This document shows, piece by piece, positions 219 to 13,167 of a stretch of DNA of 13,167 bases; positions within the stretch are counted from its first letter, which is position 1, and every line of letters begins with the position of its first letter. Below the pieces are notes generated by a model that was not told the DNA's origin, ran no database searches, and worked only from the letters and a program-made list of their open reading frames with translations. Source of the stretch: a virus; the IMG/VR virus record IMGVR_UViG_3300021387_000118, positions 1-13,167 of that record, one strand, 5' to 3'. Both the position numbers and the translations under genes were made by a program.

Positions 219-431
219 ATGACCGAGAAAAAATTATATACTTGTGATATTTGCAAAACCGATTATGCCAGTAAAGAAAAAGCTATTCAATGTGAAAAGA
301 ATCATAAGCTGTTAGAAACCGCGACAATAGTTGGAGTTTATAAATCTATGAACTCCATCAAAGAGGGTGTTCCCACAAAAATAAGAGTTAAATTTAAAGG
401 CATGGATGAGTTCATAGAATATGGGAGGTAA
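219..431 (+). CDS. small hypothetical protein (70 aa) with Cys-rich N-terminus (CDIC...C..C), possible zinc ribbon
   Basis: GGAGG at 207-211 lies 7 nt before ATG 219. The stop TAA at 429-431 overlaps the RBS of the next gene. Confidence 0.6.
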   Translation: MTEKKLYTCDICKTDYASKEKAIQCEKNHKLLETATIVGVYKSMNSIKEGVPTKIRVKFKGMDEFIEYGR

Positions 432-433
432 AG

Positions 434-661
434 ATGAATAATTATAATACAGCAACCACAGAAGAAATATCTCTTGCATTAAGAAAAGTTAAAGAACTTG
501 CCACAATGAGTCTTGTTTGGTCAAGACCTGTTTGTAAGCAGTGTGAATTTTATGATTTTAATGAGATGTCGGACGAATCATATTGTATAGCTAAAGATTA
601 TGAACCAATTCATCTTTATAGAAAGCATCGTCCTGATTGGTGTCCGAGATTGAACAAATAA
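434..661 (+). CDS. small hypothetical Cys-containing protein (75 aa; CKQC...C...C)
   Basis: GGGAGG at 423-428 lies 5 nt before ATG 434. Matches the ORF track. Confidence 0.65.
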   Translation: MNNYNTATTEEISLALRKVKELATMSLVWSRPVCKQCEFYDFNEMSDESYCIAKDYEPIHLYRKHRPDWCPRLNK

Positions 662-769
662 AATAAGTTTGTGAACGGAGATATAATTGCTCCTGTTGGA
701 TGGTTTGGACTTTGCGGGATGAAAAAACCGTGATGAAAACAGGAGTATGTATTACAGCTAGGAGACAGA

Positions 770-967
770 ATGAAACATACAAAACAAGAATATATTGATT
801 TCTTTACCCATATGGAACAAGAAGAAATTCACAATGGGCCTCTGGATGGACAGGCTTGGGACGAAGTTGATTGGTGGATCTATTATGCAGTAGATGTAGA
901 CAAGACACTCACAGAGGATGAACTAAAGGGCATGTTTCCGAACTTGTTCAGATGGGAGGACGAATGA
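770..967 (+). CDS. hypothetical acidic small protein (65 aa)
   Basis: AGGAGA at 760-765 precedes ATG 770. The stop overlaps the next start in an ATGA arrangement at 964-967. Confidence 0.6.
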   Translation: MKHTKQEYIDFFTHMEQEEIHNGPLDGQAWDEVDWWIYYAVDVDKTLTEDELKGMFPNLFRWEDE

Positions 968-1491
968 AAGTTATAACTGCACCGGAGTATTATGAGCCAC
1001 ATGATAAAGATATTTCAGTGTTTCTGGCTGGTGGTATTACGAATTGTCCTGATTGGCAGTCACGGGTAATTAAAACTATAAAAGATGACTATAGTGTAAT
1101 TAGTGATTCACTTGTATTATTTAATCCACGTCGTGAAAATTTTCCAATTCATGATAAACTCGCGGCAATACAGCAAATATTATGGGAGTTTGATATGATT
1201 GAAAAGTGCAATATTTTTTCAATTTATTTTTCATCTGGGGATAGTGATCAGCCGATTTGTATGTATGAACTTGGACGCAATATTTTGAGAATGCAGATGA
1301 GATTCCCATCTGATTGGGAAGACAGAATTATTATCAGTGTCGAAGATGGCTATAGACGCAAACAGGATGTGTTAATTCAGACCGAATTGGCAACAAATAG
1401 TAAGATTTTTGTTAATACACAAGTTTCTAAAGACATAGGTATGGAGTATCACATTCAAAATATAATGAGAGCGTTTAAGAAATTCAGATAG
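964..1491 (+). CDS. nucleoside 2-deoxyribosyltransferase-like protein (PF05014/DUF4406-like Rossmann fold)
   Basis: N-terminal VFLAGGIT resembles the NDT IYFGAGWF motif. DSDQPICMYELGRN resembles the NDT catalytic-Glu motif (G.GMELGYA). GGAGG at 955-959 precedes ATG 964. The alternative start is ATG 952. Confidence 0.55.
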   Translation: MKVITAPEYYEPHDKDISVFLAGGITNCPDWQSRVIKTIKDDYSVISDSLVLFNPRRENFPIHDKLAAIQQILWEFDMIEKCNIFSIYFSSGDSDQPICMYELGRNILRMQMRFPSDWEDRIIISVEDGYRRKQDVLIQTELATNSKIFVNTQVSKDIGMEYHIQNIMRAFKKFR

Positions 1492-1527
1492 TGGATTATT
1501 AATGAGTTTTTGATAGGAGAGAATAAA

Positions 1528-1761
1528 ATGGATTTTTCGCTAGGTGGAATACCAATTTATAACGCAAGAAATATAGAGTGGAAATCAAATGGCGATGGTA
1601 CTGGGCAGCTCTGGTTTAATACTGTGGTTGCAGATAAAAACGGCAAAGAGCAAGATGTAAGATTTCATATATTCAGATTAAAGTTTGATGACCCGTTAAT
1701 ATCTATTGAATCAGTTGATAATAAATTATACGAGATTGAAACGGTAGATCATTCATTCTAA
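1528..1761 (+). CDS. hypothetical protein (77 aa)
   Basis: The conserved junction cassette TTTTGATAGGAGAG ends 8 nt before ATG 1528. The track ORF begins at an upstream TTG in the same frame. Confidence 0.6.
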   Translation: MDFSLGGIPIYNARNIEWKSNGDGTGQLWFNTVVADKNGKEQDVRFHIFRLKFDDPLISIESVDNKLYEIETVDHSF

Positions 1762-1787
1762 TAAAAAGATAATTTAATGGTAAATAA

Positions 1788-1985
1788 ATGATAGGTAAAT
1801 GTCTAAACAACTGTGATAATAAAACCAAAGATGGATATTGCAAAACTACTGGATGTATAAACTCTCAATACCGACAATATCTAACTACGGGTATCGAAGA
1901 TGGATGGATTAAAGTTGATAAACAAACATGGAGAGAGTATCAAATGATGAAAGATCCAGACTACGGAGTTGGAAAATTTAGTTAA
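1788..1985 (+). CDS. small Cys-rich hypothetical protein (65 aa; C..NC...C...C)
   Basis: It is a track ORF with only a weak RBS, but it fits the co-directional packing. Confidence 0.4.
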   Translation: MIGKCLNNCDNKTKDGYCKTTGCINSQYRQYLTTGIEDGWIKVDKQTWREYQMMKDPDYGVGKFS

Positions 1986-2147
1986 TAAATAACTTTTTAT
2001 GCCTGAGATGGTATGCGATTGAGGAAATGAACTCATGATTTAAAAACTAATCATTTAAGCGGTGGGTTAGGATTAGCTCCGAAAGGTAACCATGTCCAAG
2101 GATGAAGCAACTACCGCATAAGAAGACTATTTAATGAGGATCATTGA

Positions 2148-2360
2148 ATGCGTTTATATGAAATCGAAGCAGATTATCGACCGAAGAATCCAAAGAAGCC
2201 CAAATATTATGTCTGGGCAGACACGACTAAAGATGCAAAATTGGTTTTTAACAATATAATCAGTTGGCTTACGATTTATAATGTCGCTCCAATGAACAAA
2301 GAAGACTCTGATAAGATATGTAATGAACCAGATAAGTATATAATCATAGGAAAAAAGTAA
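2148..2360 (+). CDS. hypothetical basic protein (70 aa)
   Basis: GAGGA at 2134-2138 lies 9 nt before ATG 2148. The stop overlaps the start of the next gene (TAATG). Confidence 0.55.
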   Translation: MRLYEIEADYRPKNPKKPKYYVWADTTKDAKLVFNNIISWLTIYNVAPMNKEDSDKICNEPDKYIIIGKK

Positions 2361-2791
2361 TGTATAAACAAATAATCATAGTTCGTAAAGACTTAAATAT
2401 GGGCCACGGCAAGATGGCTGCGCAAGTTGCACATGCTTCAATGTCGTTCTTATCATGGTTTGTAAGAGATAATGCTGACCAAGATGGTCATATTGACGCT
2501 TGGTTTGACAAGGATATCTTAGATAACTGGCTGAATGGCATTTATACTAAGGTTGTGTTACAGGCCAAGAATAAGGGTCAACTAGAGAAAGCAATTATCC
2601 TAGCTAATGAAATAGGCTTGGTGGAGGGGAAAGATTATTTTTTAATCAAAGATAACTGCCTTACAGAGCTTGAGCCGGAAGAAGTTGATGAATATGGTGT
2701 TGGTAGAACATTGACTTGTATTGGATTTAAACCGATGGATTCCGAAGTAATAGACAAGGTTGCCAAGAAGTTTCATATTTATGTAGATTAA
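2360..2791 (+). CDS. pth2: peptidyl-tRNA hydrolase, PTH2 family
   Basis: IIIVRKDLNMGHGKMAAQVAHAS matches the PTH2 signature (VVRxDLxMGKGKxAAQCxHAA). The C-terminal GRTLTCIGFKP...IDKV matches PTH2 (QTVLGIGPGP..IDKV). The TAATG overlap links it to the upstream gene. Confidence 0.85.
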   Translation: MYKQIIIVRKDLNMGHGKMAAQVAHASMSFLSWFVRDNADQDGHIDAWFDKDILDNWLNGIYTKVVLQAKNKGQLEKAIILANEIGLVEGKDYFLIKDNCLTELEPEEVDEYGVGRTLTCIGFKPMDSEVIDKVAKKFHIYVD

Positions 2792-2835
2792 CCAATAAAT
2801 AAGAGTAATACAAGTTGTATTGAAGGATTGTGAGA

Positions 2836-3018
2836 ATGAACAATAAAATAATCTTAGACAATAAAGAAATGTTTGTCGCAGTACAAGAGTATTTATCTAA
2901 AAGAAATATTGAATTACCAGAAGATGTTTCTGTTACTATGAAACTAAAGAAAAGATTGCCAGGAGATCCATTTCCAGATGATTATATTCCGTATATAGAG
3001 GTTGAATATAATGTATGA
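2836..3018 (+). CDS. hypothetical protein (60 aa)
   Basis: AAGGA at 2822-2826 precedes ATG 2836. The track ORF starts at an upstream GTG in the same frame. Confidence 0.5.
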   Translation: MNNKIILDNKEMFVAVQEYLSKRNIELPEDVSVTMKLKKRLPGDPFPDDYIPYIEVEYNV

Positions 3019-3244
3019 ATATATAAATTGTCCCGTCTGCGGAACGCGCAATGAATATACTACTTATTCTGAATTGGGGTTCGGAATAATCGAGCGACAT
3101 TATCATTGTCCTAGATGTACATATTTCGTTGAACAAGCATATAGTCCAGTATGTGTCGGAATTAGTACAGACTGTCCAGAAGAATATCTTGAAAGAGCCA
3201 AAGAGTTGAAATTGGATTTTTATCAGCCGGATGAGATACCGTGA
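3011..3244 (+). CDS. zinc-ribbon protein (CPVCG ... CPRC), 77 aa
   Basis: GAGG at 2998-3001 lies 9 nt before ATG 3011. It carries two CxxC pairs. It overlaps the 3' end of the upstream gene by 8 nt. Confidence 0.6.
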   Translation: MYEYINCPVCGTRNEYTTYSELGFGIIERHYHCPRCTYFVEQAYSPVCVGISTDCPEEYLERAKELKLDFYQPDEIP

Positions 3245-3312
3245 AAGTATGTTGGGTGTAAATCCTAACTCACAGAAAATATTGGGAATGTATGGATTGA
3301 AAGAAGTGTTTT

Positions 3313-3564
3313 ATGAGTAAGAGAAGAAAAGGCCGATCAATTGACCATCATTGGCAATTTGTAAAATATAAAGGTGACGGAGCGTTCTATGCTAAATGCA
3401 GTTGCGGATTTCATTATGGATGTGATAAGCCAAAATACGAAAATTCTAGTATCCCAACAGTCCCATCACCTGAGAAGTTATATAACTACTGCCCACATTG
3501 TGGAGCGAGAAAAACAAGATATTATGATGAACCAATATATATTGATAAGTATTGGTTTGAGTAA
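3313..3564 (+). CDS. zinc-finger-like protein (CSCG ... CPHCG), 83 aa, basic N-terminus
   Basis: It is a track ORF with a weak SD. The overlapping frame at 3374..3568 is less gene-like. Confidence 0.5.
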   Translation: MSKRRKGRSIDHHWQFVKYKGDGAFYAKCSCGFHYGCDKPKYENSSIPTVPSPEKLYNYCPHCGARKTRYYDEPIYIDKYWFE

Positions 3565-3576
3565 ATGAGGATTGAT

Positions 3577-3774
3577 ATGAGTGTTGAAGGATTTTTGCTT
3601 AAAAGAAGAAGGTTTAGAACTACTCACAACATGTATCAACTAACTTGCGACGATGAACATTTTGATTTGGATATGGCGGTTAGCTTATTGGAAAATATTG
3701 GGAAAGTGGCAGAAGATGGTAAAGAGATGTGGACAATAGTTCCACCAGGATATAAATGGAGTGTTGTAAAATGA
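3577..3774 (+). CDS. hypothetical protein (65 aa; 69 aa if started at ATG 3565)
   Basis: GAGGA at 3567-3571 lies 5 nt before ATG 3577. The in-frame ATG 3565 abuts the upstream stop and is the alternative start. Confidence 0.5.
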   Translation: MSVEGFLLKRRRFRTTHNMYQLTCDDEHFDLDMAVSLLENIGKVAEDGKEMWTIVPPGYKWSVVK

Positions 3775-4145
3775 CAAGAGTAATAATTGCGGGGAGCAGA
3801 CAGTTTAATGATTATCATAAGATGTTAACAGAATTGGACAACCTTGGAATTCATTTTATCAATACCATAGATCCAATAGAGATTGTTAGTGGTCATGCTT
3901 CTGGTGCTGATGCTCTTGGCGAAAGATTTGCTAAAGAATATAATTATCCGCTCAAGACATTCCCCGCCGAATGGAATAAATACGGGAAAGCTGCCGGACC
4001 AATCCGCAATGAACAGATGGCTAAATATGCAGCAGAGGCTGATCGAGGGATTTTGATTGCGTTCCCAATTGGAGAGAGTAGGGGAACTAACAATATGATT
4101 AAACTAGCAAAACAGTATGGCCTAGAAGTAAACGTGGTGTATTGA
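3771..4145 (+). CDS. SLOG-superfamily (DprA/LOG-like; DUF2493-like) Rossmann protein
   Basis: VIIAGSRQF is a Rossmann beta1 strand. GHASGADALGERFA matches the GxARGxDxxA motif. AGPIRNEQM matches the GPxRNxxM motif. ATGA overlaps the upstream stop. The alternative start is ATG 3756 with AGGA at 3747-3750. Confidence 0.55.
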   Translation: MTRVIIAGSRQFNDYHKMLTELDNLGIHFINTIDPIEIVSGHASGADALGERFAKEYNYPLKTFPAEWNKYGKAAGPIRNEQMAKYAAEADRGILIAFPIGESRGTNNMIKLAKQYGLEVNVVY

Positions 4146-4166
4146 TTAAATACTTTTATACTACTA

Positions 4167-4195
4167 TTGACAACAAGTAGATAAAAAAGTATAAT
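4167..4195 (+). promoter_or_regulatory. perfect sigma-A/sigma-70 consensus promoter TTGACA-N17-TATAAT
   Basis: TTGACA sits at 4167-4172, the spacer is exactly 17 nt, and TATAAT sits at 4190-4195. It lies in the 79-nt gap before the gene at 4225. Confidence 0.75.
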
Positions 4196-4224
4196 CAATA
4201 TAAATTATTAAAAGGAGAAAACCA

Positions 4225-4584
4225 ATGGCTGGATTAGAAGAACTTAAAACTGTTTACAAAATGATTAAGAATTATTATGGATATAAATGTACAGATGTAA
4301 TTTTCCGCAAAGATGAAGATGACGAATTCTGTGAGTTAGTTTTTGAGTATCAGGGGTTCCCAGTAAAGACAATATTCTCTTATGGGTTTTGCACTAATGT
4401 GATATACCCTAATAATGATGAAGTAACTATCATTGGCAATGATGAAAAGAATGGGGCAGTTCTTTCGACCACGGTTTATTTCGCTATCTGCGATTTTATT
4501 AAGACTATTAATAAGAATAGATTCGATAATGAAGCTATAAATGCATTCATTGATTATCTGTGGGATGATGTTATAAATGTATAA
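4225..4584 (+). CDS. hypothetical protein (119 aa)
   Basis: AAAGGAG lies about 7 nt before ATG 4225. It is the first gene downstream of the consensus promoter. Confidence 0.65.
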   Translation: MAGLEELKTVYKMIKNYYGYKCTDVIFRKDEDDEFCELVFEYQGFPVKTIFSYGFCTNVIYPNNDEVTIIGNDEKNGAVLSTTVYFAICDFIKTINKNRFDNEAINAFIDYLWDDVINV

Positions 4585-4604
4585 TTAAATGAAGAGGAAT
4601 GAAT

Positions 4605-5099
4605 ATGCTATCTCAATCCAACATTGATAAACTTCATGTAAATGGTATTTATAAATGCGAACCCGTATTGAGTTGGTTACCATTCTATAAACGAGATAAT
4701 CCTTACTGGTGTCGCAACTGGACGTTTAAGGTTAAAGAATATAAAGGTCACTATGCTATGTATGATACTTACTGGTCAACAGGTGACGATTATCCAATAG
4801 AACTTACAGATGAGAATTTTGATAAATTTGAATATCTGTTTGATTTGGATGATATTCGGTATATACATGATTATGAAAGCTGGCTTGAATATCCAGAAGA
4901 AGATAGATGGAGAGTGCCACTAGATTCTGGCGGCACCAATCATGCAAAATATGTTGTTCGGCGTGGAGCCAAGAGGGTTAAGGAACGAGTTATCGAGAGA
5001 ATGCAGCGTGATATTGATTGCTTAAAGCATGAGTTATCTCAGAAAGGGCGGATCCTCGAAGGGATTATCAATGGTAGTATTGATTGGAATATATGCTGA
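4605..5099 (+). CDS. hypothetical protein (164 aa), Trp/Tyr-rich
   Basis: GAGG at 4594-4597 lies 7 nt before ATG 4605. ATG 4599 is too close to the SD. Confidence 0.6.
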   Translation: MLSQSNIDKLHVNGIYKCEPVLSWLPFYKRDNPYWCRNWTFKVKEYKGHYAMYDTYWSTGDDYPIELTDENFDKFEYLFDLDDIRYIHDYESWLEYPEEDRWRVPLDSGGTNHAKYVVRRGAKRVKERVIERMQRDIDCLKHELSQKGRILEGIINGSIDWNIC

Positions 5100-5162
5100 T
5101 GGAGAGTGTGATGTGGGATCCAGAAACTGATGCTTGCGATTATTGAAAGGAGAGGACAACTC

Positions 5163-5324
5163 ATGGATCAAGCACATATGATAAAAGACCTTGAAATTGC
5201 AAAATGCATACTGAGTAATTTAAACACCCCACTTGATGGGATGATGAGAGTCTGTATTGGGCAAATTATATCGGAAGCAATTGACGCATTAAAAATAGAG
5301 GAGAAACATAATGAGGATAATTAA
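5163..5324 (+). CDS. small hypothetical protein (53 aa)
   Basis: AAAGGAGAGG at 5146-5155 lies 7 nt before ATG 5163. The track ORF from 5130 lacks an RBS. Confidence 0.5.
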   Translation: MDQAHMIKDLEIAKCILSNLNTPLDGMMRVCIGQIISEAIDALKIEEKHNEDN

Positions 5325-5712
5325 TCGAAATGAATTAGCAAAGATGCCAAATGGCACGGTGTTCTCATCATTTGATGGTTATAGTGTTGACGGATTTGAA
5401 ATTATAACAGGCAGCCATGGTGATGGATTTAATGGTACGCTTGATCTGGAACCAAGTTTTAATTGGGATAGTGATCATGCGGAACGTATTACTAACTGGT
5501 CAACTGTAGATACCGCCGATTATGATTTTGATGAGGATGCCAAGTTCGTTGTTTATAGTAAGAATGAAATACGTGAAATAATTCAGTGGCTAAAATGGGC
5601 CATTGACGAAGACGGACATCCTGATATGGAAAAGTATTTTTATAAAAACCAAGTAATGTCGGAGGGGGAAGCTTCAAAATATACTAATGGTCATGGCTTA
5701 TGGTGGGGATAA
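5311..5712 (+). CDS. hypothetical protein (133 aa)
   Basis: GAGGAG at 5298-5303 lies 7 nt before ATG 5311. Confidence 0.65.
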   Translation: MRIINRNELAKMPNGTVFSSFDGYSVDGFEIITGSHGDGFNGTLDLEPSFNWDSDHAERITNWSTVDTADYDFDEDAKFVVYSKNEIREIIQWLKWAIDEDGHPDMEKYFYKNQVMSEGEASKYTNGHGLWWG

Positions 5713-5724
5713 AACAAGATTTCA

Positions 5725-5904
5725 ATGCCTAATTATGTAAGATGCATTCAGTTAGAACCTGGATTAAAATTATATTATAGTAATAAAGAACAATGTTTAA
5801 GAACATCGGAAGAATTAACAAATGCCGGATTTAAGAATCGTGTTGCATATAATTATGACGGTGATTTTTGGAGTATATATGTATTAGATGAAACAAGTCT
5901 TTGA
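5725..5904 (+). CDS. small hypothetical protein (59 aa), below the ORF-track cutoff
   Basis: It fills an otherwise empty gap. It ends ...DETSL with its stop inside the conserved junction cassette (AAGTCTTTGATAGGAG). The SD is weak. Confidence 0.4.
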   Translation: MPNYVRCIQLEPGLKLYYSNKEQCLRTSEELTNAGFKNRVAYNYDGDFWSIYVLDETSL

Positions 5905-5919
5905 TAGGAGAAAAAATAT

Positions 5920-6120
5920 ATGTACGATCCTGAAGAAATAAATAAAAATCCTTGGTGGTGGATAAGAAATAGAGGAAAAATTAATGATGCTCTTGAAGTA
6001 ATAGATCTTGCTTTAGAAGAATATGATGAGGGACGCGGGTTGGCATTTTCTGATATTCCAGATAAATTTAAAGATATCAAAAATTTCTTTAATGATGTTT
6101 GCTATCCTGATTGGAAGTGA
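5920..6120 (+). CDS. hypothetical Trp-rich protein (66 aa)
   Basis: The junction cassette TTTGATAGGAGAAAAAATAT precedes ATG 5920. Confidence 0.6.
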   Translation: MYDPEEINKNPWWWIRNRGKINDALEVIDLALEEYDEGRGLAFSDIPDKFKDIKNFFNDVCYPDWK

Positions 6121-6144
6121 AAATTAGATTTTATTGGAGAATTT

Positions 6145-6429
6145 ATGAAGAAGATTGATGAAGGAAATATGAGTGGACTTCGTGATTGGTGTGCTATGCA
6201 TGGTATAATATACGTGCAATGGTATCCATATGATAATTGTTCTGGTTATTACATAGAGAATCCATCAGAGGATGCATTGGAAAAATTCTATGAAAATGTT
6301 AATGCGTCTGATCCATATCATAGATCTTTTGTTTTAATATTGGGGAAGACTGAAACTCATAATAATTTGAACATGAGAACTATTGATGAATATATACAAC
6401 ATGGTATATTACCTTTTCTATTTTGTTGA
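6145..6429 (+). CDS. hypothetical protein (94 aa) carrying an LRDWC motif
   Basis: The cassette TTTTATTGGAGAATTT precedes ATG 6145. It contains a 17-nt exact repeat shared with the gene at 7415. Confidence 0.6.
   Translation: MKKIDEGNMSGLRDWCAMHGIIYVQWYPYDNCSGYYIENPSEDALEKFYENVNASDPYHRSFVLILGKTETHNNLNMRTIDEYIQHGILPFLFC
6177..6193 (+). repeat. 17-nt exact repeat ACTTCGTGATTGGTGTG (copy 1, inside the gene at 6145)
   Basis: The identical 17-mer recurs at 7558-7574 inside the gene at 7415. Both copies encode LRDWC. Confidence 0.8.
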
Positions 6430-6455
6430 AAAACTGAATTTGATTGGAGAAAAAT

Positions 6456-6791
6456 ATGAGTTATAACGAGAACGGTATTTGTAAATTCGCAATAGAACGA
6501 GAAGACGGTCATGGTGAGCAGCAACGTCATCCGTTACAGCTGGTGGCAAGAATAGATGTTGATGACCTGGTAAAGCTATTCGATGAAGCCCCGACAAATT
6601 TTGATGGCGAGAACCCCATTTGTAAAGTAAAAGATCCAATTAAATTTACGAAGTTTGTCATCAGGAGATTATGGGACGATGCACCATATGAAGCTGATGA
6701 TGTTGTTTGGGCACAGCCGTTGACTTATATCTTTGAACAATTACTAGAAGATTATAGGCCGGAGTTTCTGGAGTATTTTGATGAGGTATGA
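6456..6791 (+). CDS. hypothetical acidic protein (111 aa)
   Basis: The cassette TTTGATTGGAGAAAAAT precedes ATG 6456. The track ORF starts at an upstream TTG in the same frame. Confidence 0.6.
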   Translation: MSYNENGICKFAIEREDGHGEQQRHPLQLVARIDVDDLVKLFDEAPTNFDGENPICKVKDPIKFTKFVIRRLWDDAPYEADDVVWAQPLTYIFEQLLEDYRPEFLEYFDEV

Positions 6792-6821
6792 AATTGAGGT
6801 TTTATCGGAAAAGAGGTAAAA

Positions 6822-6989
6822 ATGTTTAAATTTGAAAAAATAGCCGAAATAAGGACTGTTAGCGGGAAAGTGACAAAAGAGGTTGTTGAAGCCCTCATAG
6901 ATAAAGGGTTTTATTTATGCCTTGACGGAAATTATGCAATGGATGGATGCGATTTTATTGTAATGAAAAAAGCATCTGATGAAAACTAA
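6822..6989 (+). CDS. small hypothetical protein (55 aa), below the ORF-track cutoff
   Basis: AAGAGG at 6811-6816 lies 5 nt before ATG 6822. It fills a 190-nt gap in the same orientation. Confidence 0.5.
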   Translation: MFKFEKIAEIRTVSGKVTKEVVEALIDKGFYLCLDGNYAMDGCDFIVMKKASDEN

Positions 6990-7017
6990 GTTTTATTGGA
7001 ATTTTGAAGTGATATTT

Positions 7018-7197
7018 ATGAAGAAAATACTAATAGTTAAAAATGGCAATACCCCAATGGGAATATTCGAGACAGAAAGAGTTGAAGAACACTGGAGTTG
7101 GGGAAAGCATTGGTTTGACTTTCAATTGAAAGATGGAAGTAGATCAGTAGATTATCAGATGCCTTTATGCCACTACTATATTTTGAAAAAGAAATAA
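7018..7197 (+). CDS. small hypothetical protein (59 aa)
   Basis: A cassette variant AAGTTTTATTGGAATTTTGAAGTGA precedes ATG 7018. The in-frame ATG 6979 is the alternative start, but it lies inside the upstream small ORF. Confidence 0.45.
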   Translation: MKKILIVKNGNTPMGIFETERVEEHWSWGKHWFDFQLKDGSRSVDYQMPLCHYYILKKK

Positions 7198-7214
7198 GTT
7201 TTATGGGAAGTAAT

Positions 7215-7394
7215 ATGGATATATATAAACTAATAGATTACTACATTGACAAATATTTAGAAGAAAAGGAACATCAAACAGATGGTTATACTCGTGCTGG
7301 GATGTTACAGGGATTATTATGGATTTGTCGCTTTGGTGGCGTAACAGATGAGAACCTTGGTGATGATAGATTAATAAAGATATCTAGCAAATGA
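7215..7394 (+). CDS. small hypothetical protein (59 aa)
   Basis: The cassette variant AAGTTTTATGGGAAG ends 5 nt before ATG 7215. The alternative start is ATG 7203. Confidence 0.5.
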   Translation: MDIYKLIDYYIDKYLEEKEHQTDGYTRAGMLQGLLWICRFGGVTDENLGDDRLIKISSK

Positions 7395-7414
7395 AATAAA
7401 CGCTTGGAGGCACT

Positions 7415-7594
7415 ATGACAAATTTTGAAAAATATATAAATAGCTTAACACAGGATAAGTTCATAGATTCGATGATACTAAACTGCGATGGTTGTCCAGC
7501 GTATCCATGTAATGATGAAAATATTACAGAAGACAATGGGCTTGATTGCGAAGAAAAACTTCGTGATTGGTGTGAAACTGAAAGAAGTCTTTGA
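7415..7594 (+). CDS. small Cys-rich protein (59 aa; CDGCPAYPC ... LRDWC), below the track cutoff
   Basis: GGAGG at 7406-7410 lies 4 nt before ATG 7415. Its stop sits inside the junction cassette. It shares the 17-nt repeat with the gene at 6145. It is preferred over the overlapping ORFs at 7384..7698 (-) and 7488..7796 (+). Confidence 0.55.
   Translation: MTNFEKYINSLTQDKFIDSMILNCDGCPAYPCNDENITEDNGLDCEEKLRDWCETERSL
7558..7574 (+). repeat. 17-nt exact repeat ACTTCGTGATTGGTGTG (copy 2, inside the gene at 7415)
   Basis: See copy 1. Confidence 0.8.
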
Positions 7595-7606
7595 TGAGGA
7601 AAAAAT

Positions 7607-7888
7607 ATGTATAGAGAGATGCCACCAGATGCAATGCAACCACATGATACTTGGATTATTGCCTTTTGCCCAGATACAGATTCGTTCTTTGTCACCAATC
7701 AGAGGGCATTCTACTGGGAATCCGAAGAAGAATTTGAATCAGAAGAAGCTGGAATATATTTCTTTGAGCATCAGATTCAATACTTCATTGATGTAGAAGA
7801 AAAATTAATGAGCGACATGTTTATTAATGATTGGAATACTGATCGTGTTTTTCTGGAGAACACAAATAGACGATATCTTAAAAGCTAA
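7607..7888 (+). CDS. hypothetical acidic protein (93 aa)
   Basis: The cassette AAGTCTTTGATGAGGAAAAAATAT precedes ATG 7607. Confidence 0.6.
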   Translation: MYREMPPDAMQPHDTWIIAFCPDTDSFFVTNQRAFYWESEEEFESEEAGIYFFEHQIQYFIDVEEKLMSDMFINDWNTDRVFLENTNRRYLKS

Positions 7889-7906
7889 GTTTAATTGGAG
7901 AATGTA

Positions 7907-8230
7907 ATGGTAGCAAGATGTGGGAATACTGGTGTTACTGTTGGCAGCGAATGGTGTGGATTATGCCGAGTGCATGGATGCGAAGGATATAAATTATTTA
8001 AACAATCATGTAAGAATGGCGAACAATTTAATGAAGGAGAAGCTATGGTAGAAATTAATGATGTGAATCTTAACAAAGAACTTATGTGTGAGATTAGAAT
8101 TCCTATAGGAGTTAATAGAGAGACAATTACAAATCCTTTTAAGATACTTGGATTTGATGTAAGACAAATTGGCAGCCTTTCTAATGGTGATATTATTTAT
8201 GAGGTGGTTGATAAACCTAAGGTGAGATAA
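7907..8230 (+). CDS. Cys-rich (C..C..C...C) hypothetical protein (107 aa)
   Basis: The cassette AAGTTTAATTGGAGAATGTA precedes ATG 7907. The track ORF starts at an upstream TTG in the same frame. Confidence 0.6.
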   Translation: MVARCGNTGVTVGSEWCGLCRVHGCEGYKLFKQSCKNGEQFNEGEAMVEINDVNLNKELMCEIRIPIGVNRETITNPFKILGFDVRQIGSLSNGDIIYEVVDKPKVR

Positions 8231-8252
8231 TTATGAATGGGAGATATTAGAT

Positions 8253-8606
8253 ATGAAGAGCTGTCCAAATTGTGGCGCACCATTTGAACCTTATAAATGC
8301 AAGTGTGAATTTTGCGGCACATGGTACTTTGATTTCACTGCATTTGATATGAGTGAGAATGTACCATACTATGTAAAGTTTAGAACGCCATATGGAATAA
8401 TTACTACATTGGCTAGACCGGAATTACAGACAATTGAAGTAAATGACGATTATTATTATGCCTGTAATTCAAGGGGTAATAAAATTGCTAAAATTGTTGG
8501 GAACAGAAGCTGTGATCTTAATGTAACATTTCATTCACAGATTGATCCAGAAACTGAAACGTTGTATCAGTTGGAAGTATCTAATGAAAATGGAATAGAA
8601 AAATGA
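8253..8606 (+). CDS. zinc-ribbon protein (CPNCG ... CKCEFCG N-terminus), 117 aa
   Basis: GGGAGA at 8239-8244 lies 8 nt before ATG 8253. It has an N-terminal Cys4-type ribbon. Confidence 0.65.
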   Translation: MKSCPNCGAPFEPYKCKCEFCGTWYFDFTAFDMSENVPYYVKFRTPYGIITTLARPELQTIEVNDDYYYACNSRGNKIAKIVGNRSCDLNVTFHSQIDPETETLYQLEVSNENGIEK

Positions 8607-8656
8607 TTTAATGAGTAAAAAAGAATGAATGAGGAGTAATCCTGAAGGAAATAATT

Positions 8657-8923
8657 ATGAGATATTTTAAATGTGCAGCGATTAGATACAAGACAGGTGA
8701 AGACATCTGGACAGAAAGACGAGGCAAAAGACATCATGAAATTATTAAAGCAATTCATGATGCTGGAGAAACAGAGCAGTATAAGAAATGTCATGTGGAT
8801 GGATTTATAATCGGAGAAAGTTGGACCGCAGAATTTGTAGACCGAGAAACTGCTACAGAAATCGCCAAAGAAATGGGGATTAAAATGCGAGGTTGTGTTC
8901 TAACATCTGAAGATTTGTGGTAA
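8657..8923 (+). CDS. hypothetical protein (88 aa)
   Basis: GAAGGA at 8643-8648 lies 8 nt before ATG 8657. Confidence 0.6.
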   Translation: MRYFKCAAIRYKTGEDIWTERRGKRHHEIIKAIHDAGETEQYKKCHVDGFIIGESWTAEFVDRETATEIAKEMGIKMRGCVLTSEDLW

Positions 8924-8946
8924 TAAGTTAATAAGAGGAGTCCATA

Positions 8947-9123
8947 ATGATGGAACGATGTGAATATTGTGAGTATCGTAATGGCTGGGAATGTAGTGAT
9001 GGATACTATAGAGTTTCTAATGATAAGATGTGCGAGAGGTTTAAGTTAGATTTCGACACGCTAAGTGATGGTGTTAAACGTCAGATCCAGAAGCGATTGA
9101 TTGGCGAGTTGGAATGGATTTAA
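8947..9123 (+). CDS. small zinc-binding-like protein (58 aa; CEYCEY ... C ... C), below the track cutoff
   Basis: AGAGGAG at 8934-8940 lies 6 nt before ATG 8947. It fills a gap and ends with TAA at 9121-9123. Confidence 0.5.
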   Translation: MMERCEYCEYRNGWECSDGYYRVSNDKMCERFKLDFDTLSDGVKRQIQKRLIGELEWI

Positions 9124-9127
9124 GAAA

Positions 9128-9436
9128 ATGATGAATTGTGATAATTGCAGATATTATGAATGGTATTATGATTATTGTAGTAAATGGAAATGCAAAGTAG
9201 ATTCGAGAGAGGTTCATGATTGTTTTAAACCCCGTGAAAATAATATGGTTAATAAAATATTAAGAAAAGACTTTAGCAATCCGAATAAGTTGGTTGCTGG
9301 ATATGAAGTAGTAGATGAAGAGCCGGAAGAAATAACTTTTAAGTATTCAGATTTCGAAGTATTCCACAGTGGAAACGCTGCAATCTGGTCTCCGTTGGTT
9401 TGGCAACTAAGATATAATTATGGATTGTATAAATGA
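9128..9436 (+). CDS. Cys-rich hypothetical protein (102 aa; CDNC ... C..C.C)
   Basis: ATG 9128 is 4 nt after the upstream stop, suggesting translational coupling. The SD is weak. The track ORF starts at an upstream TTG in the same frame. Confidence 0.5.
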   Translation: MMNCDNCRYYEWYYDYCSKWKCKVDSREVHDCFKPRENNMVNKILRKDFSNPNKLVAGYEVVDEEPEEITFKYSDFEVFHSGNAAIWSPLVWQLRYNYGLYK

Positions 9437-9446
9437 GGAAATAACA

Positions 9447-9755
9447 ATGTTATTAGATATTATAACTTCGACAAAGATTGGCATTTTTTATTTAGATAAA
9501 GGTTGGAAAGACGATGTTTATGAGAAAATTAGAGCCGATGCTTTAAAGTGTGAGACTCTTAAGTATTTCAATAAAAATGAAATATGCTTTGCTGACAAGC
9601 ATATAAAGATATGTATTTATTTTTATCCGGTAGATAATAATGTTAGAGGATGCAGATTTGATCGAGTTTATTATCAGCAGGGCATAGATAGAGATGTTTT
9701 ATTAAGTCGAGCTGCACCAAAGATATTAACAAGGATGTATCCGCTAGATGTTTAA
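9447..9755 (+). CDS. hypothetical protein (102 aa)
   Basis: GAGGAA at 9433-9438 lies 8 nt before ATG 9447. Confidence 0.55.
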   Translation: MLLDIITSTKIGIFYLDKGWKDDVYEKIRADALKCETLKYFNKNEICFADKHIKICIYFYPVDNNVRGCRFDRVYYQQGIDRDVLLSRAAPKILTRMYPLDV

Positions 9756-9768
9756 TAGGAGGAAAATA

Positions 9769-9966
9769 ATGAAGAAAAAAGAACATATGAGAATTATGAA
9801 TAAGGCAACTATTAAGGTATTCTTTAAAGATGGTAACGTTGATGAGATCCCGTCCAGGATCTGGGATGACTATCAGTATATTGATAGGCTGTTTGTTGTT
9901 AAGAGACGTGGAGTTTGGATTGGAATTTACAACATGGATGGAGTAGATTGTATTACCATCGGATAA
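9769..9966 (+). CDS. small basic hypothetical protein (65 aa)
   Basis: AGGAGG at 9756-9761 lies 7 nt before ATG 9769. Confidence 0.6.
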   Translation: MKKKEHMRIMNKATIKVFFKDGNVDEIPSRIWDDYQYIDRLFVVKRRGVWIGIYNMDGVDCITIG

Positions 9967-9984
9967 GAAGAATGGAGTATTGTA

Positions 9985-10644
9985 ATGAGTAATTATGTAA
10001 TTCACGCTTGCCCTAAGAGATTGTGGTATGTAGAAGAATTTCTCGTACCATCACTCAAAGAACAGGGCATAGAGAATATTGACGTAAGATGTGACAACTT
10101 TAAGCGTGGTAATCTTTTGTATTGTATGGATATCTTTGGAAGAATGACCGGAGATGGTGGCAGTTGGCACATACAGGACGATGTGGTTATTTGCCGAGAT
10201 TTCGCTCAACGTACTGCTAAGTATGATGGCAAGAATGAAATAGTGTGTGGCTTTGCTTGGGATAAAGATCCTAACATAGACAAAATCGACCATGTGCAGC
10301 AATCTGATATGTGGTACTCATTTCCTTGTATATATATCCCTAACTACATTGCCAAGGAATGTTCTGAATGGTTTTTCAATAAAGGACGATATGATGGAAG
10401 ATATTTATCATTTAGCGTTAAAGGCCAGTTCGATGATTATTTCTTCCAGAAGTATCTGATGGAGTATTATCCAGAACTTCCCGTTCTACATATTAAGCCG
10501 AGTCTTGTTGATCATATTGATTACCTAATTGGTGGAACAACAGTGGAAGCTATTGGCAGAGACGAGGTTAGTAGAGCAAAGTGGTTTGATGATCCTGATC
10601 TTGTTAATCAATTAAAGGAGAGGTTAAAATACAGAAATGGCTAA
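9985..10644 (+). CDS. first copy of a tandem paralog pair: GT-A-fold/DxD-like putative glycosyltransferase (219 aa)
   Basis: GGAG at 9974-9977 lies 7 nt before ATG 9985. DGGSWHIQDDVVI resembles the GT-A (h)GG(v)Y(l)DxDhh motif. The C-terminal LVDHIDYLIGG has an H-x-D pair. It is clearly paralogous to the ORF at 10637..11302. Confidence 0.6.
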   Translation: MSNYVIHACPKRLWYVEEFLVPSLKEQGIENIDVRCDNFKRGNLLYCMDIFGRMTGDGGSWHIQDDVVICRDFAQRTAKYDGKNEIVCGFAWDKDPNIDKIDHVQQSDMWYSFPCIYIPNYIAKECSEWFFNKGRYDGRYLSFSVKGQFDDYFFQKYLMEYYPELPVLHIKPSLVDHIDYLIGGTTVEAIGRDEVSRAKWFDDPDLVNQLKERLKYRNG

Positions 10645-11302
10645 TTATTTAATTCATGCTTGTCCAGAACGAATGTGGTATGTGGATAATTATCTGGTGC
10701 CATCACTTCGTAATCAGGGTATTAATAATATTATTGTCAGTTGTGATCAGTTACATTTGGGGAATCTAGAAAGTTGTATGAAGATTTTCGGTTCTCTGGA
10801 AGACGATGGTTATGGTACATGGCATCTGCAAGATGATGTGATTATATGCCGGAACTTTCGGGAAATTACCGAGAGATATGATTATGGTGTTGTTTGCGGT
10901 TTCACTCATTCACGATCTGCTAACACTGGATTTGTTTTACCGGATAAGATGTGGTACTCATTTCCATGTATTAGAATATCTAACGGGATAGCCAAAGAAT
11001 GTTCACAGTGGTACTATTCGTTCGCTAAGAAATATGCTAAATATTATGAATGGGTTCATATGGGGAAATGTGATGATAATTTCTTCTATGAATTCATGAA
11101 TAAGTATTGTTCTACATTAGATGTATTAAATCTAGTTCCTAATTTGGTTGATCATATTGATTACCTTCTGGGAGGATCAATGGTTAACCAATACAGGAAT
11201 GGCGAACAATTTAGATCAGCTTACTTTGAGGATGTTGATCTTGTAGATCAATTAGCTAATGATATAAGGAGAAATAATAATGGTACGAATGCTTCATTAT
11301 GA
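10637..11302 (+). CDS. second copy of the tandem paralog pair: GT-A-fold/DxD-like putative glycosyltransferase (221 aa)
   Basis: It shares with the upstream ORF the blocks YxIHACPxRxWYV..LVPSL, WHxQDDVxICRxF, MWYSFPCI, IAKECSxW and LVDHIDYLxGG. It overlaps the upstream stop by 8 nt. AAGGAGAGG lies upstream. Confidence 0.6.
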   Translation: MANYLIHACPERMWYVDNYLVPSLRNQGINNIIVSCDQLHLGNLESCMKIFGSLEDDGYGTWHLQDDVIICRNFREITERYDYGVVCGFTHSRSANTGFVLPDKMWYSFPCIRISNGIAKECSQWYYSFAKKYAKYYEWVHMGKCDDNFFYEFMNKYCSTLDVLNLVPNLVDHIDYLLGGSMVNQYRNGEQFRSAYFEDVDLVDQLANDIRRNNNGTNASL

Positions 11303-11591
11303 TGATCGTAAAGAAGAACGTCAATCGCATGAGATCTATTTTCAACTGTCTGGCGATGATGATTTTAAAAACTTCTTTGGGGCTGAAGGTGATGGTCATG
11401 TGACTGAATTGAGTTTGGCAAGTCTACGTGCATATGGGGCAACTAAGGAAGAAGCTCTCAAGAACATGGAACCTATCATGGAATGGTTAGCTGCCGAAAT
11501 CCAGGCAATCTACCTTCTCTATCAAGATGGATTTTATGATAAAAATGTTATTGACGTTGATGCTGCTGGTATACCTATAGGAGAAGAATGA
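11280..11591 (+). CDS. HicB/UPF0150-like domain protein (103 aa)
   Basis: AGGAG at 11266-11270 lies 9 nt before ATG 11280. ELSLASLRAYGATKEEALKNMEPIMEWL resembles the UPF0150/HicB N-domain motif (PxLPG..a.G.T.EEAL.N..EAi..wl). Confidence 0.4.
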   Translation: MVRMLHYDDRKEERQSHEIYFQLSGDDDFKNFFGAEGDGHVTELSLASLRAYGATKEEALKNMEPIMEWLAAEIQAIYLLYQDGFYDKNVIDVDAAGIPIGEE

Positions 11592-11914
11592 TGAAATATC
11601 GTATTAAAGAAATCCTTCATAGCGGCAGAAAAGATACTAGGAATAAGCCAGTTGACTCACCTAAGTTTGATGGCATGATTGGTTCTATTATCGAACTCAA
11701 GTATATAGAAGATCCCAATATGAATATAACTGAGATTGATAATATAGAAGATATTAAACAGTTTAGTTTAGTTGGATGGGATTTTTTATCTGGAGATGCT
11801 CCGTATGAGTATTGGGAAACTACTGCCGTTATAGCGATTTATCTGGATTATAATGATGTGTATCACATCGAAACTGCTAATACTATTTATAAACTGGAAA
11901 AAATCGAAGACTAA
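11588..11914 (+). CDS. hypothetical protein (108 aa)
   Basis: AGGAGAAG precedes the ATGATG at 11588/11591. ATGA overlaps the upstream stop. Confidence 0.55.
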   Translation: MMKYRIKEILHSGRKDTRNKPVDSPKFDGMIGSIIELKYIEDPNMNITEIDNIEDIKQFSLVGWDFLSGDAPYEYWETTAVIAIYLDYNDVYHIETANTIYKLEKIED

Positions 11915-11943
11915 TTTATTGAAAATATATAAAATGTGTCAGA

Positions 11944-11972
11944 TTGTCATTCTAGTATGTGAGTAGTATAAT
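11944..11972 (+). promoter_or_regulatory. near-consensus sigma-A promoter TTGTCA-N17-TATAAT
   Basis: TTGTCA sits at 11944-11949, the spacer is 17 nt, and TATAAT sits at 11967-11972. It lies in the 98-nt gap upstream of the HPr-like gene. Confidence 0.7.
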
Positions 11973-11980
11973 TAATTTCG

Positions 11981-11998
11981 TTAATAATTAATTATTAA
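11981..11998. promoter_or_regulatory. perfect 18-bp palindrome TTAATAATTAATTATTAA directly downstream of the -10; candidate operator
   Basis: The 18 bases are exactly self-complementary. They sit between the TATAAT box and the RBS of the gene at 12013. Confidence 0.4.
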
Positions 11999-12012
11999 AC
12001 AAGAGGTAACAT

Positions 12013-12255
12013 ATGAGAATTCTATTGGACTTGGATCTGGAAAAAATCAACGATCTATGCAAGATTTGCGACACATCATCATTAGATGTTAATGTTGTTT
12101 CTGGCAGTTTGATTGTTGACGGTTGTTCAGTGATGGGTGTCATGGGGTTGTGCGATAGAGTTGTTGAATTAAAACCTGTAACAACAGATCCCATGGAAAT
12201 TGCAGCATTTTTTGAAAGAGTAAAGCCGTTAGGCGCATATTTCAGTAAGGAGTAA
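12013..12255 (+). CDS. HPr/Crh-like phosphocarrier-fold protein lacking the His15 active site
   Basis: DVNVVSGSLIVDGCSVMGVMGLCDRVVEL aligns to the HPr segment [32 protein letters not shown], so the Ser46 region is conserved. The N-terminal LDLEKINDL has no equivalent of the GIHARPA His15 loop. AGAGG lies 6 nt before ATG 12013. Confidence 0.5.
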   Translation: MRILLDLDLEKINDLCKICDTSSLDVNVVSGSLIVDGCSVMGVMGLCDRVVELKPVTTDPMEIAAFFERVKPLGAYFSKE

Positions 12256-12260
12256 AAATT

Positions 12261-12686
12261 ATGAAGAGAAAGAGTATTCAGAACAAAAATTTTAAGATTA
12301 TCCCCGAAGCAAAGCTTGTACAGGGCGAAATGCCGGAAAAGCTTATTGCGTATGATTTGACTGCTGGAATTAAGAGTAAGTATAAGGATCTTATTTTAGC
12401 GGCATCATTTGAATATGAAGATGACTGGTTCCCGTGTGACAATGTAATTACCGCTAATGCTTACTGCGATGAAAAGGATGAGTGGGATGAGAAGGTTGGC
12501 ACCGATGTTTGTGCTGCCAAGTTGGAACTGAAGAATCACCAGAAGCTCGCTAAGAAGTACGATAGAATTGCTAGAGATCTTCAGGAAGCCTGTCTGATCG
12601 CCCAGAGTTATTGCATTCGACATGAAGCAAAGGCTATGTCTATTGAGGATGATCTGATACAGTATCACGGAAGGTTGCCGATGTGA
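12261..12686 (+). CDS. hypothetical protein (141 aa)
   Basis: AAGGAG at 12244-12249 lies upstream of ATG 12261. Matches the ORF track. Confidence 0.6.
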   Translation: MKRKSIQNKNFKIIPEAKLVQGEMPEKLIAYDLTAGIKSKYKDLILAASFEYEDDWFPCDNVITANAYCDEKDEWDEKVGTDVCAAKLELKNHQKLAKKYDRIARDLQEACLIAQSYCIRHEAKAMSIEDDLIQYHGRLPM

Positions 12687-12697
12687 GGAGGAACTAA

Positions 12698-13167
12698 ATG
12701 GAGTTTGTAAATGAAATCATTAACAATATCTGGAAAGACAGATATAGAAAGAATAATGAAACACTTGAGGGTAATTTTAGAAGAGTTGCGAAGTTTTGTG
12801 CGAAAGATAAAAATGATGAAAATGACTTTTTTAATGTTATGGACAGAGGTCTTTTTTATCCGGCTGGAAGAACTATGAGTAATTCTGGTGTTGGTACAAA
12901 ACTAACTCTTAATAATTGCTTTACGGCTCCCCAAATTGGAGATAGCTACGATGAAATATTTGACAGAGTAAGACTTGGGGCAGTTACTCATCAGCGCGGT
13001 GGAGGTATTGGATATGATTTCTCGCAGCTTCGTCCTAAAGGATCTCCTACTTCTAATAACGCAGTTGCTTCTGGACCAGTGAGTTTTATGGATGTTTTTA
13101 ATGCACAGACAGAGACTACAATCCAGGGGCAACGCCGTGGAGCAAATATGGGTATTATGAATGTATA
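12698..13167 (+). CDS. nrdJ: ribonucleotide reductase catalytic subunit, N-terminal part (runs off the window); most consistent with class II adenosylcobalamin-dependent NrdJ
   Basis: GAGGAGG at 12685-12691 lies 6 nt before ATG 12698. LNNCF, RGGGIGYDFSQLRPKGS, ASGPVSFMDVF and QRRGANMG match the RNR active-site and N-terminal signatures (compare Thermotoga NrdJ: LSACFV, GGGTGFSFSRLRPKG, ASGPVSFMRVFD, KRRGANM). It is absent from the ORF track because there is no stop in the window. Confidence 0.8.
   Translation, partial: MEFVNEIINNIWKDRYRKNNETLEGNFRRVAKFCAKDKNDENDFFNVMDRGLFYPAGRTMSNSGVGTKLTLNNCFTAPQIGDSYDEIFDRVRLGAVTHQRGGGIGYDFSQLRPKGSPTSNNAVASGPVSFMDVFNAQTETTIQGQRRGANMGIMNV

Follow-up and report, generated by a model that had tools for sequence, protein, structure and literature searches.

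To our knowledge, glycosylation of virus particles by phage-encoded enzymes was until recently known only for mycobacteriophages, in which virion glycosylation shields the particles from antibodies. According to Freeman (2023), as cited in later articles (PMC11256854, PMC12619734, PMC13445384), the capsid and tail-tube subunits of mycobacteriophage Che8 virions bear O-linked glycans on their C-termini. The Che8 capsid and tail proteins end in ...FNKTGS and ...YSDGS, respectively, and three overlapping glycosyltransferase (GT) genes, gp108–110, occupy a region of small genes at the right end of the genome, a long way from the gene for the capsid protein. Here, we analyze a tandem pair of overlapping genes, open reading frames (ORFs) A and B, in a 13,167-bp stretch of viral DNA (IMG/VR record IMGVR_UViG_3300021387_000118, positions 1 to 13,167; hereafter the window). 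The encoded proteins belong to a phage-specific family that has no existing name and that we call GTX. Both ORFs probably encode active, diverged, metal-dependent glycosyltransferases of the GT-A fold, and we favor, with moderate confidence, the explanation that these enzymes O-glycosylate virion proteins, with the two copies performing different transfer steps.

The locus and its relatives resemble the Che8 system in several ways. First, GTX proteins and Che8 gp110 or its homolog gp87 of phage Ardmore, which belong to the clustered GTs of cluster F1 mycobacteriophages, have similar lengths (219 residues for ORF A, 211 for the actinobacteriophage proteins), are single-domain proteins of the GT-A fold, and contain four motif blocks in the same order. 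Second, overlapping GT genes are found in tandem among small non-structural genes at a distance from the capsid gene. Third, short Ser/Thr-bearing virion C-termini occur in Che8 and in GTX-bearing phages. Finally, the phage-encoded GT cluster of Che8 has a counterpart in the tandem pair of the window and in the GT2, GT8, methyltransferase-like, and nucleotidyltransferase partners of GTX in relatives. By contrast, the hosts differ, being Actinobacteria for Che8 and Bacillota, mostly Clostridia, for GTX phages; gp110 does not have the GTX features C9, W61-H62, C88-G89-F, MWYSFPC, and the Gly-Gly after the H-x-D motif; and Che8 does not have the long poly-Thr capsid tails present in many GTX phages.

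Paralogous proteins with conserved GT-A features

ORF A (219 residues; positions 9985–10644, + strand; ATG start and TAA stop) represents the conserved position-1 type of GTX enzyme, and ORF B (221 residues; positions 10637–11302, + strand; ATG start and TGA stop) is its paralog of the variable position-2 type. The genes overlap by eight nucleotides, ATGGCTAA, as read directly from the DNA: the 3′ end of ORF A is AAT GGC TAA, and the ATG of ORF B begins eight bases before the end of that TAA. BLASTP aligned the two proteins over their whole length, with identity at 104 of 219 positions (47%), 65% positives, and an E-value of 3e-73. A preliminary description of the window had recognized this pair, and its coordinates proved to be exact; the shared blocks that it listed (HACPxRxWYV..LVPSL, WHxQDDVxICRxF, CGF, MWYSFPCI, IAKECSxW, and LVDHIDYLxGG) were all found in our alignment of ORFs A and B.

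Each gene is preceded by its own Shine-Dalgarno sequence. That of ORF A, GGAG (9974–9977, + strand; read from the sequence), lies 7 nt 5′ of the start codon, and that of ORF B, AAGGAGAGG (10615–10623, + strand), lies within the 3′ end of ORF A, 13 nt 5′ of the ORF B start codon. No terminator-like site was found between positions 8500 and 12800, and the sole strong promoter-like site is downstream of the pair at 11944–11972. Based upon these signals and the eight-nucleotide overlap, the pair is part of a longer operon, and translation of ORFs A and B is probably coupled.

The GTX family comprises 535 clusters at 90% identity and 369 representatives at 50% identity, nearly all of them 210–230 residues long, unnamed, and without a domain assignment. 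An alignment of 63 sequences had 25 invariant columns, including D37, W61, H62, Q64, D65, D66, F73, C88, G89, F113, C115, D150, D151, H177, D179, G183, and G184 (ORF A numbering), and every invariant residue was kept in both ORF A and ORF B. The invariant Q64-D65-D66 sequence of ORF A (codons at 10174–10182, + strand) is a DxD-type motif and a putative ligand for metal and the phosphates of a nucleotide sugar. Close to the C-terminus, the PxLVDHxD block contains H177-I178-D179 (codons at 10513–10521, + strand), a putative second metal ligand or catalytic residue. The corresponding ORF B motifs, Q65-D66-D67 (codons at 10829–10837, + strand) and H173-I174-D175 (codons at 11153–11161, + strand), occupy invariant columns of alignment A7, in which ORF B is the first sequence. 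GTX proteins are soluble and acidic (median pI 5.4, net charge –7) and have no membrane segment.

Searches at the sequence level placed these proteins in no described family. Pfam, NCBIfam, and PHROG scans of ORFs A and B gave no usable family match, and a sub-threshold ShK match and a PHROG of unknown function were judged to be spurious. A GTX profile found nothing among PDB sequences other than a chance match to IF2 (E 0.33), and no relative turned up when the INPHARED phage collection was searched at the DNA and protein levels.

Structural comparisons were more informative about the fold. The AlphaFold2 model of ORF B had a pLDDT of 91.2 and a pTM of 0.87, and its secondary-structure elements followed the same order as those of ORF A, which was modeled as a single Rossmann-like α/β/α domain that can be superposed on solved GT-A enzymes. 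In the ORF A model, the Q-D-D motif lies between strands 59–64 and 67–69, the canonical position of a DxD motif. Foldseek searches, a check proposed in the preliminary description, placed both models among GT-A transferases, with mimivirus R655 (PDB 9crz) ranked first in the PDB for ORF B and second for ORF A. GT25 members (9crz, 8xc8, and 8zgc_U) were among the structural neighbors of GTX, and chondroitin and heparan synthases and glycogenin appeared lower in the list. These models support assignment of ORFs A and B to the GT-A fold (nucleotide-diphospho-sugar transferase superfamily), as the DxD-like features noted in the preliminary description had suggested. The kinship with GT32 and with clostridial (GT44) and Legionella (GT88) glucosyltransferase toxins that it had also suggested was not borne out, as none of these families appeared in any result list and the nearest relatives were GT25-like.

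R655 is homologous to a GT25 enzyme that O-glycosylates protein, the collagen hydroxylysine galactosyltransferase, but the activity of R655 itself is undemonstrated. R655 and human GLT25D1/ColGalT1 differ from GTX proteins in being only ~10% identical and larger (311 residues or multidomain) and in having hydroxylysine in collagen as the acceptor. POMGNT1 and GnT-I (GT13) are 12–15% identical to GTX but have no sequence-level match and are eukaryotic Golgi enzymes with extra domains. Neither ORF A nor ORF B matched PF01755 (Glyco_transf_25), even at E ≤ 10, and the best PF01755 score within the family was 16.3 bits (P0146), compared to a cut-off of 24. Because this Pfam membership test failed, we do not file GTX under GT25, and the most fitting description is that of a new family with a distant relationship to GT25.

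Che8 gp110 provides a second, tentative link to GT25. Foldseek searches of the viral models of BFVD matched GTX to annotated actinobacteriophage GTs, among them Ardmore gp87 (E 1.5e-6), which is 85% identical to Che8 gp110, a member of PF01755/GT25. Profile-profile comparison of the GTX and gp110 families with hhalign aligned 131 columns (E 6.7e-4, probability 27%), and hmmsearch with the GTX HMM detected gp110 with an E-value of 1.2e-4 in a six-sequence database. The superposed residues include D37 of GTX and D36 of gp110, the QDD and EDD motifs (E65-D66-D67 is invariant in the gp110 family), F73 and F74, and the PxLVDHxD and PSLVDHxD blocks, in which the counterparts of His177 and Asp179 of ORF A are H173 and D175 of PSLVDHAD, both of them invariant in the gp110 family. 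Comparisons of GTX with neighboring GT8 and GT2 enzymes and with Che8 gp109 by hhalign revealed no similarity, and GTX is therefore not a diverged copy of any of these.

Sugar-nucleotidyltransferases were also present among the structure matches, and cytidylyl- and guanylyl-transferases were among the best for ORF B. We rejected identity as a sugar-phosphate nucleotidyltransferase because the Gly-rich GxGxR loop is absent, with I-H-A-C-P-x-R following strand 1 in GTX instead, and because GTX has both DxD and H-x-D motifs and is fused to a separate nucleotidyltransferase domain in some relatives. That fused domain, in L087 and P0146, does start with a Gly-rich sequence, MKYIIMCGG.

In the mechanism that we propose, ORF A and ORF B would each bind a nucleotide-activated sugar, with Asp37, positioned after strand 2, contacting the nucleotide and with the invariant Q-D-D and the C-terminal His177 and Asp179 holding a divalent cation on the diphosphate. 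The sugar would then be passed to an acceptor hydroxyl, for which the likeliest candidates are Ser or Thr side chains at the C-termini of virion proteins (the major capsid protein and possibly the tail tube) or a first sugar already attached there. Candidate acceptor peptides include sequences such as QFNITDSGSTTTTETTETTETT and the cognate capsid C-terminus. The A-type and B-type enzymes might catalyze, for example, initiation and extension, or might add two different sugars, and the particle would thereby come to carry an O-linked glycan coat comparable to that of Che8.

Head-module placement and covariation with virion C-termini

To survey gene context, 80 viral loci were fetched with the GTX profile, ORFs were called, and neighbors were clustered, with annotation of the recurrent clusters. 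The simple ORF caller missed GTX in 21 of 90 loci and chose antisense shadow ORFs over some capsid genes, and the context counts refer to the 69 loci in which GTX was called. GTX was located in head or packaging modules in 47 of these. In architecture A (26 loci), the gene order is TerL, an SPP1-type portal, the minor head protein VG15, sometimes a methyltransferase-like or GT8 gene, GTX, scaffold, and major capsid protein. In architecture B (21 loci), TerS and TerL are followed by one to three copies of GT2 and then by one or two of GTX, after which come the genes for portal, minor capsid protein 2, scaffold, and major head protein. Pairs of GT8 and GTX occur in larger phages. In L266, a 154-kb relative from the lineage of the window phage, GTX is the gene directly after portal in a block of SPbeta-type virion genes, and it contains five in-frame TAG codons read as Gln; such codons are also present in the neighboring structural genes. 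In three other relatives (L030, L032, and L087), GTX lies between the primase and PolA genes.

Importantly for the choice of acceptor, GTX covaries with the C-terminal sequence of the capsid. The major head protein of architecture B is phrog_422 (E 1.5e-100) and bears a Thr-rich appendage beyond the conserved fold, as in ...QFNITDSGSTTTTETTETTETTETT and ...SGATTSTTQTTATTATTATTQTTT. We fetched 80 phrog_422 homologs irrespective of GT content, counted dereplicated and scorable loci, defined the tail as the residues after the conserved QFN motif, and scored the presence of GTX at each locus. A G/S/T-rich tail (such as ...TTETTETTETTETT) was present at 15 of 17 loci with GTX, the other two having short GGTTT or GGSGTGT endings, compared to 2 of 21 loci without GTX (Fisher p 1.2e-6). 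The 19 untailed loci without GTX ended right after the core (ITE, VAA, VEA, ITA, and similar sequences) or had extensions of other kinds. The combination of GTX and tail occurred in at least four separate lineages of the capsid tree, interleaved with relatives that have neither.

One of the two exceptions with a tail and no GTX at the locus, L138, comes from the same 64.8-kb contig as L087, on which a nucleotidyltransferase-GTX fusion is encoded in the replication module, 29 kb from the capsid gene. Thus, a GTX enzyme can accompany a tailed capsid even when it is encoded outside the head module, as the window pair is. Each of the 17 cassette loci has GTX, but only 8 have GT2, and in L137 and L090 the gap between TerL and portal holds only an HNH gene and GTX, but the capsid tail is long nonetheless. 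These results suggest that GTX is probably the initiating enzyme.

The SPP1-like group (architecture A) gave a weaker signal in the same direction. Two or more Ser/Thr residues after the HYEYI sequence of the tail-tube protein were found in 8 of 13 GTX-positive loci and 2 of 18 GTX-negative loci (p 0.006), and a capsid ending of the type LLTGxxP was found in 13 of 17 and 3 of 24 loci, respectively (p 6e-5).

Several capsid relatives from loci without GT genes (L173, 10001–10888; L179, 10001–10909; L169; L174; L177; L178) have a folded-looking C-terminal extension of ~140 or ~55 residues, attached at the same point as the Thr-rich tails. It thus seems that surface decoration, whether by glycans or by protein domains, is generally attached to the C-terminal end of the capsid protein.

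A broader proposal, in which our confidence falls slightly short of even, is that GTX marks a widespread and undescribed system of capsid O-glycosylation in phages of gut and rumen Clostridia. Such a system would combine a mucin-like poly-Thr capsid tail, for example (TTE)n, with an orphan GT25-like enzyme and optional GT2, GT8, methyltransferase, and nucleotidyltransferase components, and the window phage would use a two-enzyme version encoded apart from the structural genes. If this proposal is correct, then virion glycosylation extends from actinobacteriophages to another phylum and to animal-associated ecosystems, and sugar-coated capsids are common in phages of gut and rumen Clostridia and can be predicted from a GTX gene and a Ser/Thr-rich capsid tail. 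It would also assign a function to more than 500 clusters of 'hypothetical proteins', define a new GT-A family related to GT25, and be relevant to the contacts of gut phages with mucus, host immunity, and bacterial surfaces, as well as to the design of therapeutic phages.

Partner genes and duplication of GTX

GTX is adjacent or fused to genes for GT8, GT2, MobA-like nucleotidyltransferase, methyltransferase-like, and Stealth-like proteins, which together look like a toolkit for building glycans. Fusions were observed with GT8 in either order, with the MobA-like nucleotidyltransferase, and with a second GTX domain. The nucleotidyltransferase-GTX fusions (L087, 9347–10657; L262, 528–1829; P0146; P0156; P0167) are encoded in DNA replication modules with the order helicase loader, DnaB, primase, fusion, PolA, and β-clamp, and in these a single polypeptide would both activate the donor and transfer the sugar. 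In architecture A, a 166-residue protein with weak similarity to SAM methyltransferases is often encoded between VG15 and GTX (L022, 9495–9992), and one architecture-A cassette encodes a 247-residue protein with a weak match to the sugar-phosphate transferase Stealth (L033, 5440–6180). These partners are hints of methylated or phosphodiester-linked glycans.

In a siphovirus of ~34 kb, the gene immediately upstream of GTX encodes VG15 joined to an Ntox50 toxin domain (L007, 8070–9209), and the fusion protein may be a virion-delivered toxin. The TerL-portal gap of architecture B is a hot spot for cargo that also holds endolysin or HNH endonuclease genes (L019, 6246–7715; L089, 8095–9396; L024, 5041–5670).

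Tandem GTX pairs like that of the window occur throughout the large-phage clade, in which we found no conserved partner gene beside the pair. In a neighbor-joining tree calculated without bootstrap, the upstream copies (ORF A of the window, position 1 of L004, P0003, P0005, P0007, and P0009) formed one clade, and the downstream partners were spread over several subclades. Based upon this distribution, the duplication appears to be ancient, the A-type enzyme being conserved and its partner exchangeable. Such a pattern is consistent with enzymes that perform distinct transfer steps and with a glycan that diversifies.

Evidence bearing on the acceptor

Several observations weigh against virion proteins as the acceptor in the window phage. 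First, the structural genes of this phage are outside the ~30 kb that was read of its 142-kb contig, and no virion protein with a Ser/Thr tail was seen; a search for ORFs with Ser/Thr-rich tails in the read parts of the large-phage contigs, whose structural genes likewise lie outside, gave only spurious antisense ORFs. The claim for the window locus rests on relatives that are 45–60% identical, which is its weakest point. Second, the covariation statistics ignore phylogeny, and the two motifs scored in the SPP1-like group were defined with the data already in view. Third, the homology between GTX and gp110 is statistically marginal, as the hhalign probability indicates, and the comparisons with gp109, GT8, and GT2 gave nothing. 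Fourth, because the TerL-portal slot holds general cargo, including endolysin and HNH genes, location in a head module is by itself weak evidence. Finally, the window pair is outside any head module, among small early-type and nucleotide-metabolism genes, and the three relatives with GTX in a replication module have it at a typical place for DNA-modification genes.

These last points bear on the main alternative, phage DNA, which is unlikely in our judgment but a live candidate for the window phage. A divergent thymidylate-synthase (TS) homolog of 261 residues is encoded on the same contig (L107, 1124–1909, within the region 1124–2595), ~18 kb and ~55 genes upstream of ORF A, where it is followed by genes for DUF1599 and a nucleoside 2-deoxyribosyltransferase-like protein (PF05014). 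According to this alternative, the TS homolog would make 5-hydroxymethyl-dUMP for incorporation into DNA, and ORFs A and B would then attach one or two sugars to the hydroxymethyl group, which would protect the phage genome against nucleases of the host, in a manner similar to glucosylation of 5-hydroxymethylcytosine in T-even phages or to base J. The TS homolog scored below every NCBIfam thymidylate-synthase cut-off (135 compared to 174.55 bits at best) and retains the catalytic Cys and an Asn at the pyrimidine-recognition position (equivalent to N177), which marks it as acting on dUMP. The product could be a genuine dTMP synthase or else an enzyme that hydroxymethylates dUMP, and this region may encode a non-canonical pyrimidine pathway. 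The second-best PDB match of the TS homolog was a CMP hydroxymethylase.

Modification of DNA would also account for the location of the window pair among early and nucleotide-metabolism genes (ribonucleotide reductase, dUTPase, and a second deoxyribosyltransferase-like gene) and for the primase-PolA location of GTX in the three relatives. Phage DNA glycosyltransferases, like GTX, are phage-encoded, often with several per genome that act in sequence, and some are encoded far from the base-modifying enzyme; in T4, the α-glucosyltransferase gene is also far from the hydroxymethylase gene. Moreover, some GT-A enzymes glycosylate DNA, and glycans on DNA can be extended by GT8-like enzymes (Pyle et al.); the association of GTX with GT8 thus does not distinguish between the two targets. 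However, these DNA-acting GT-A enzymes have R..DDD..EDY/F motifs and JGT/TarP-like structural neighbors, neither of which is a property of GTX, and the T4 α- and β-glucosyltransferases and the RB69 and DLP3 arabinosyltransferases have the GT-B fold. Except for the distant TS homolog of the window phage, GTX loci do not have the neighboring TS, TET, or methyltransferase genes of DNA-glycosylation systems: a TS homolog was near GTX in none of the other ~100 loci, and no TS, TET, or methyltransferase domains were found in seven Pfam-annotated neighborhoods. In addition, the acidity of GTX proteins is not typical of DNA-binding enzymes, and a DNA target leaves the covariation with the capsid unexplained. 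If DNA is nevertheless the target, then GTX would constitute a new class of DNA glycosyltransferase.

It is less probable still that the pair acts on the host cell envelope in lysogeny or infection, modifying a polymer there (wall teichoic acid or a cell-wall polysaccharide, for example) with the consequence that the receptor is changed and superinfection is blocked. The model for such a function is TarP, which is encoded by prophages of Staphylococcus aureus. A membrane segment is absent from GTX, none of the annotated neighborhoods contained a flippase or GT-C partner, and most GTX copies are co-oriented within late head operons rather than being located beside lysogeny genes. The TAG codons read as Gln in the L266 GTX gene also disfavor expression from a prophage in a host that uses the standard code, and an envelope target does not predict the covariation with the C-terminal tails of the capsid.

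Effectors of host takeover, which would attach sugar to a host protein in the manner of the clostridial and Legionella toxins, would suit the early-type position in the window, and sugar-phosphate nucleotidyltransferases of the same fold superfamily would suit the Foldseek matches of ORF B, which reflect a shared fold, but we regard both possibilities as improbable. The preliminary description had left the target as DNA, a host surface, or a protein; context and covariation in relatives narrow this choice, with moderate confidence, to proteins of the virion, specifically the capsid and tail-tube C-termini, with DNA as the chief competitor for the window phage.

Source phage and other features of the window

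The window has a GC content of 35% and ~40 small co-oriented genes on the + strand, and its sequence is found unchanged within a metagenome contig of 142 kb (L001). Genes for ribonucleotide reductase, dUTPase, and an integrase are located downstream of the pair. A 131-kb relative (L267) has the same layout of DNA ligase, GTX pair, ribonucleotide reductase, dUTPase, and integrase, and L266 has SPbeta-type Yon/Yom virion genes. All 16 GTX matches in named genomes were to metagenome-assembled genomes of Bacillota, nearly all of them Clostridia (Oscillospiraceae, Lachnospiraceae, and others), and the sample sites, where named, were ruminant guts. Based upon this layout, these virion genes, and these hosts, the source is a large, SPbeta-like, and probably temperate phage of gut or rumen Firmicutes. 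The preliminary description had proposed a virulent Firmicutes phage. The host assignment agrees with our results, but a tyrosine integrase gene is encoded ~8 kb downstream of the GT pair, at the same place in L001 (19010–20206) and L267 (17810–18991), and the lifestyle of this phage is thus probably temperate, not virulent.

Reading of TAG as Gln occurs in at least one relative. The gene calls of L266 (1–20654) contain 46 in-frame stops, every one of them TAG, and the TAG codons of its GTX gene align with Q27 and the invariant Q64 of the family. The window phage is possibly recoded as well. The source gene caller read through TAG on the contig; in the window, TAG ends 1 of 41 ORFs, and ORFs A and B are free of TAG. 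The read-through sites (window 1489–1491; L001 980–1777 and 18190–18633) could both be genuine stops, as a Shine-Dalgarno sequence and an ATG follow at window position 1528 and as the TAG codons in L001 18190–18633 are at the very C-terminus. Scans of L001, L107, L004, L006, L266, and L267 for suppressor tRNAs detected only tRNA-Pro and tRNA-Met, both in L266, and a comparison of the presumed large terminase of L266 with PDB sequences gave no match.

Most other ORFs of the window have no family assignment. Those that do include a nucleoside deoxyribosyltransferase-like protein (PF15891; 952–1491), the second such gene on the contig, the peptidyl-tRNA hydrolase PTH2 (2360–2791), a YAcAr/SLOG-family protein (3756–4145), and a protein similar to T4 Y16D (8657–8923).

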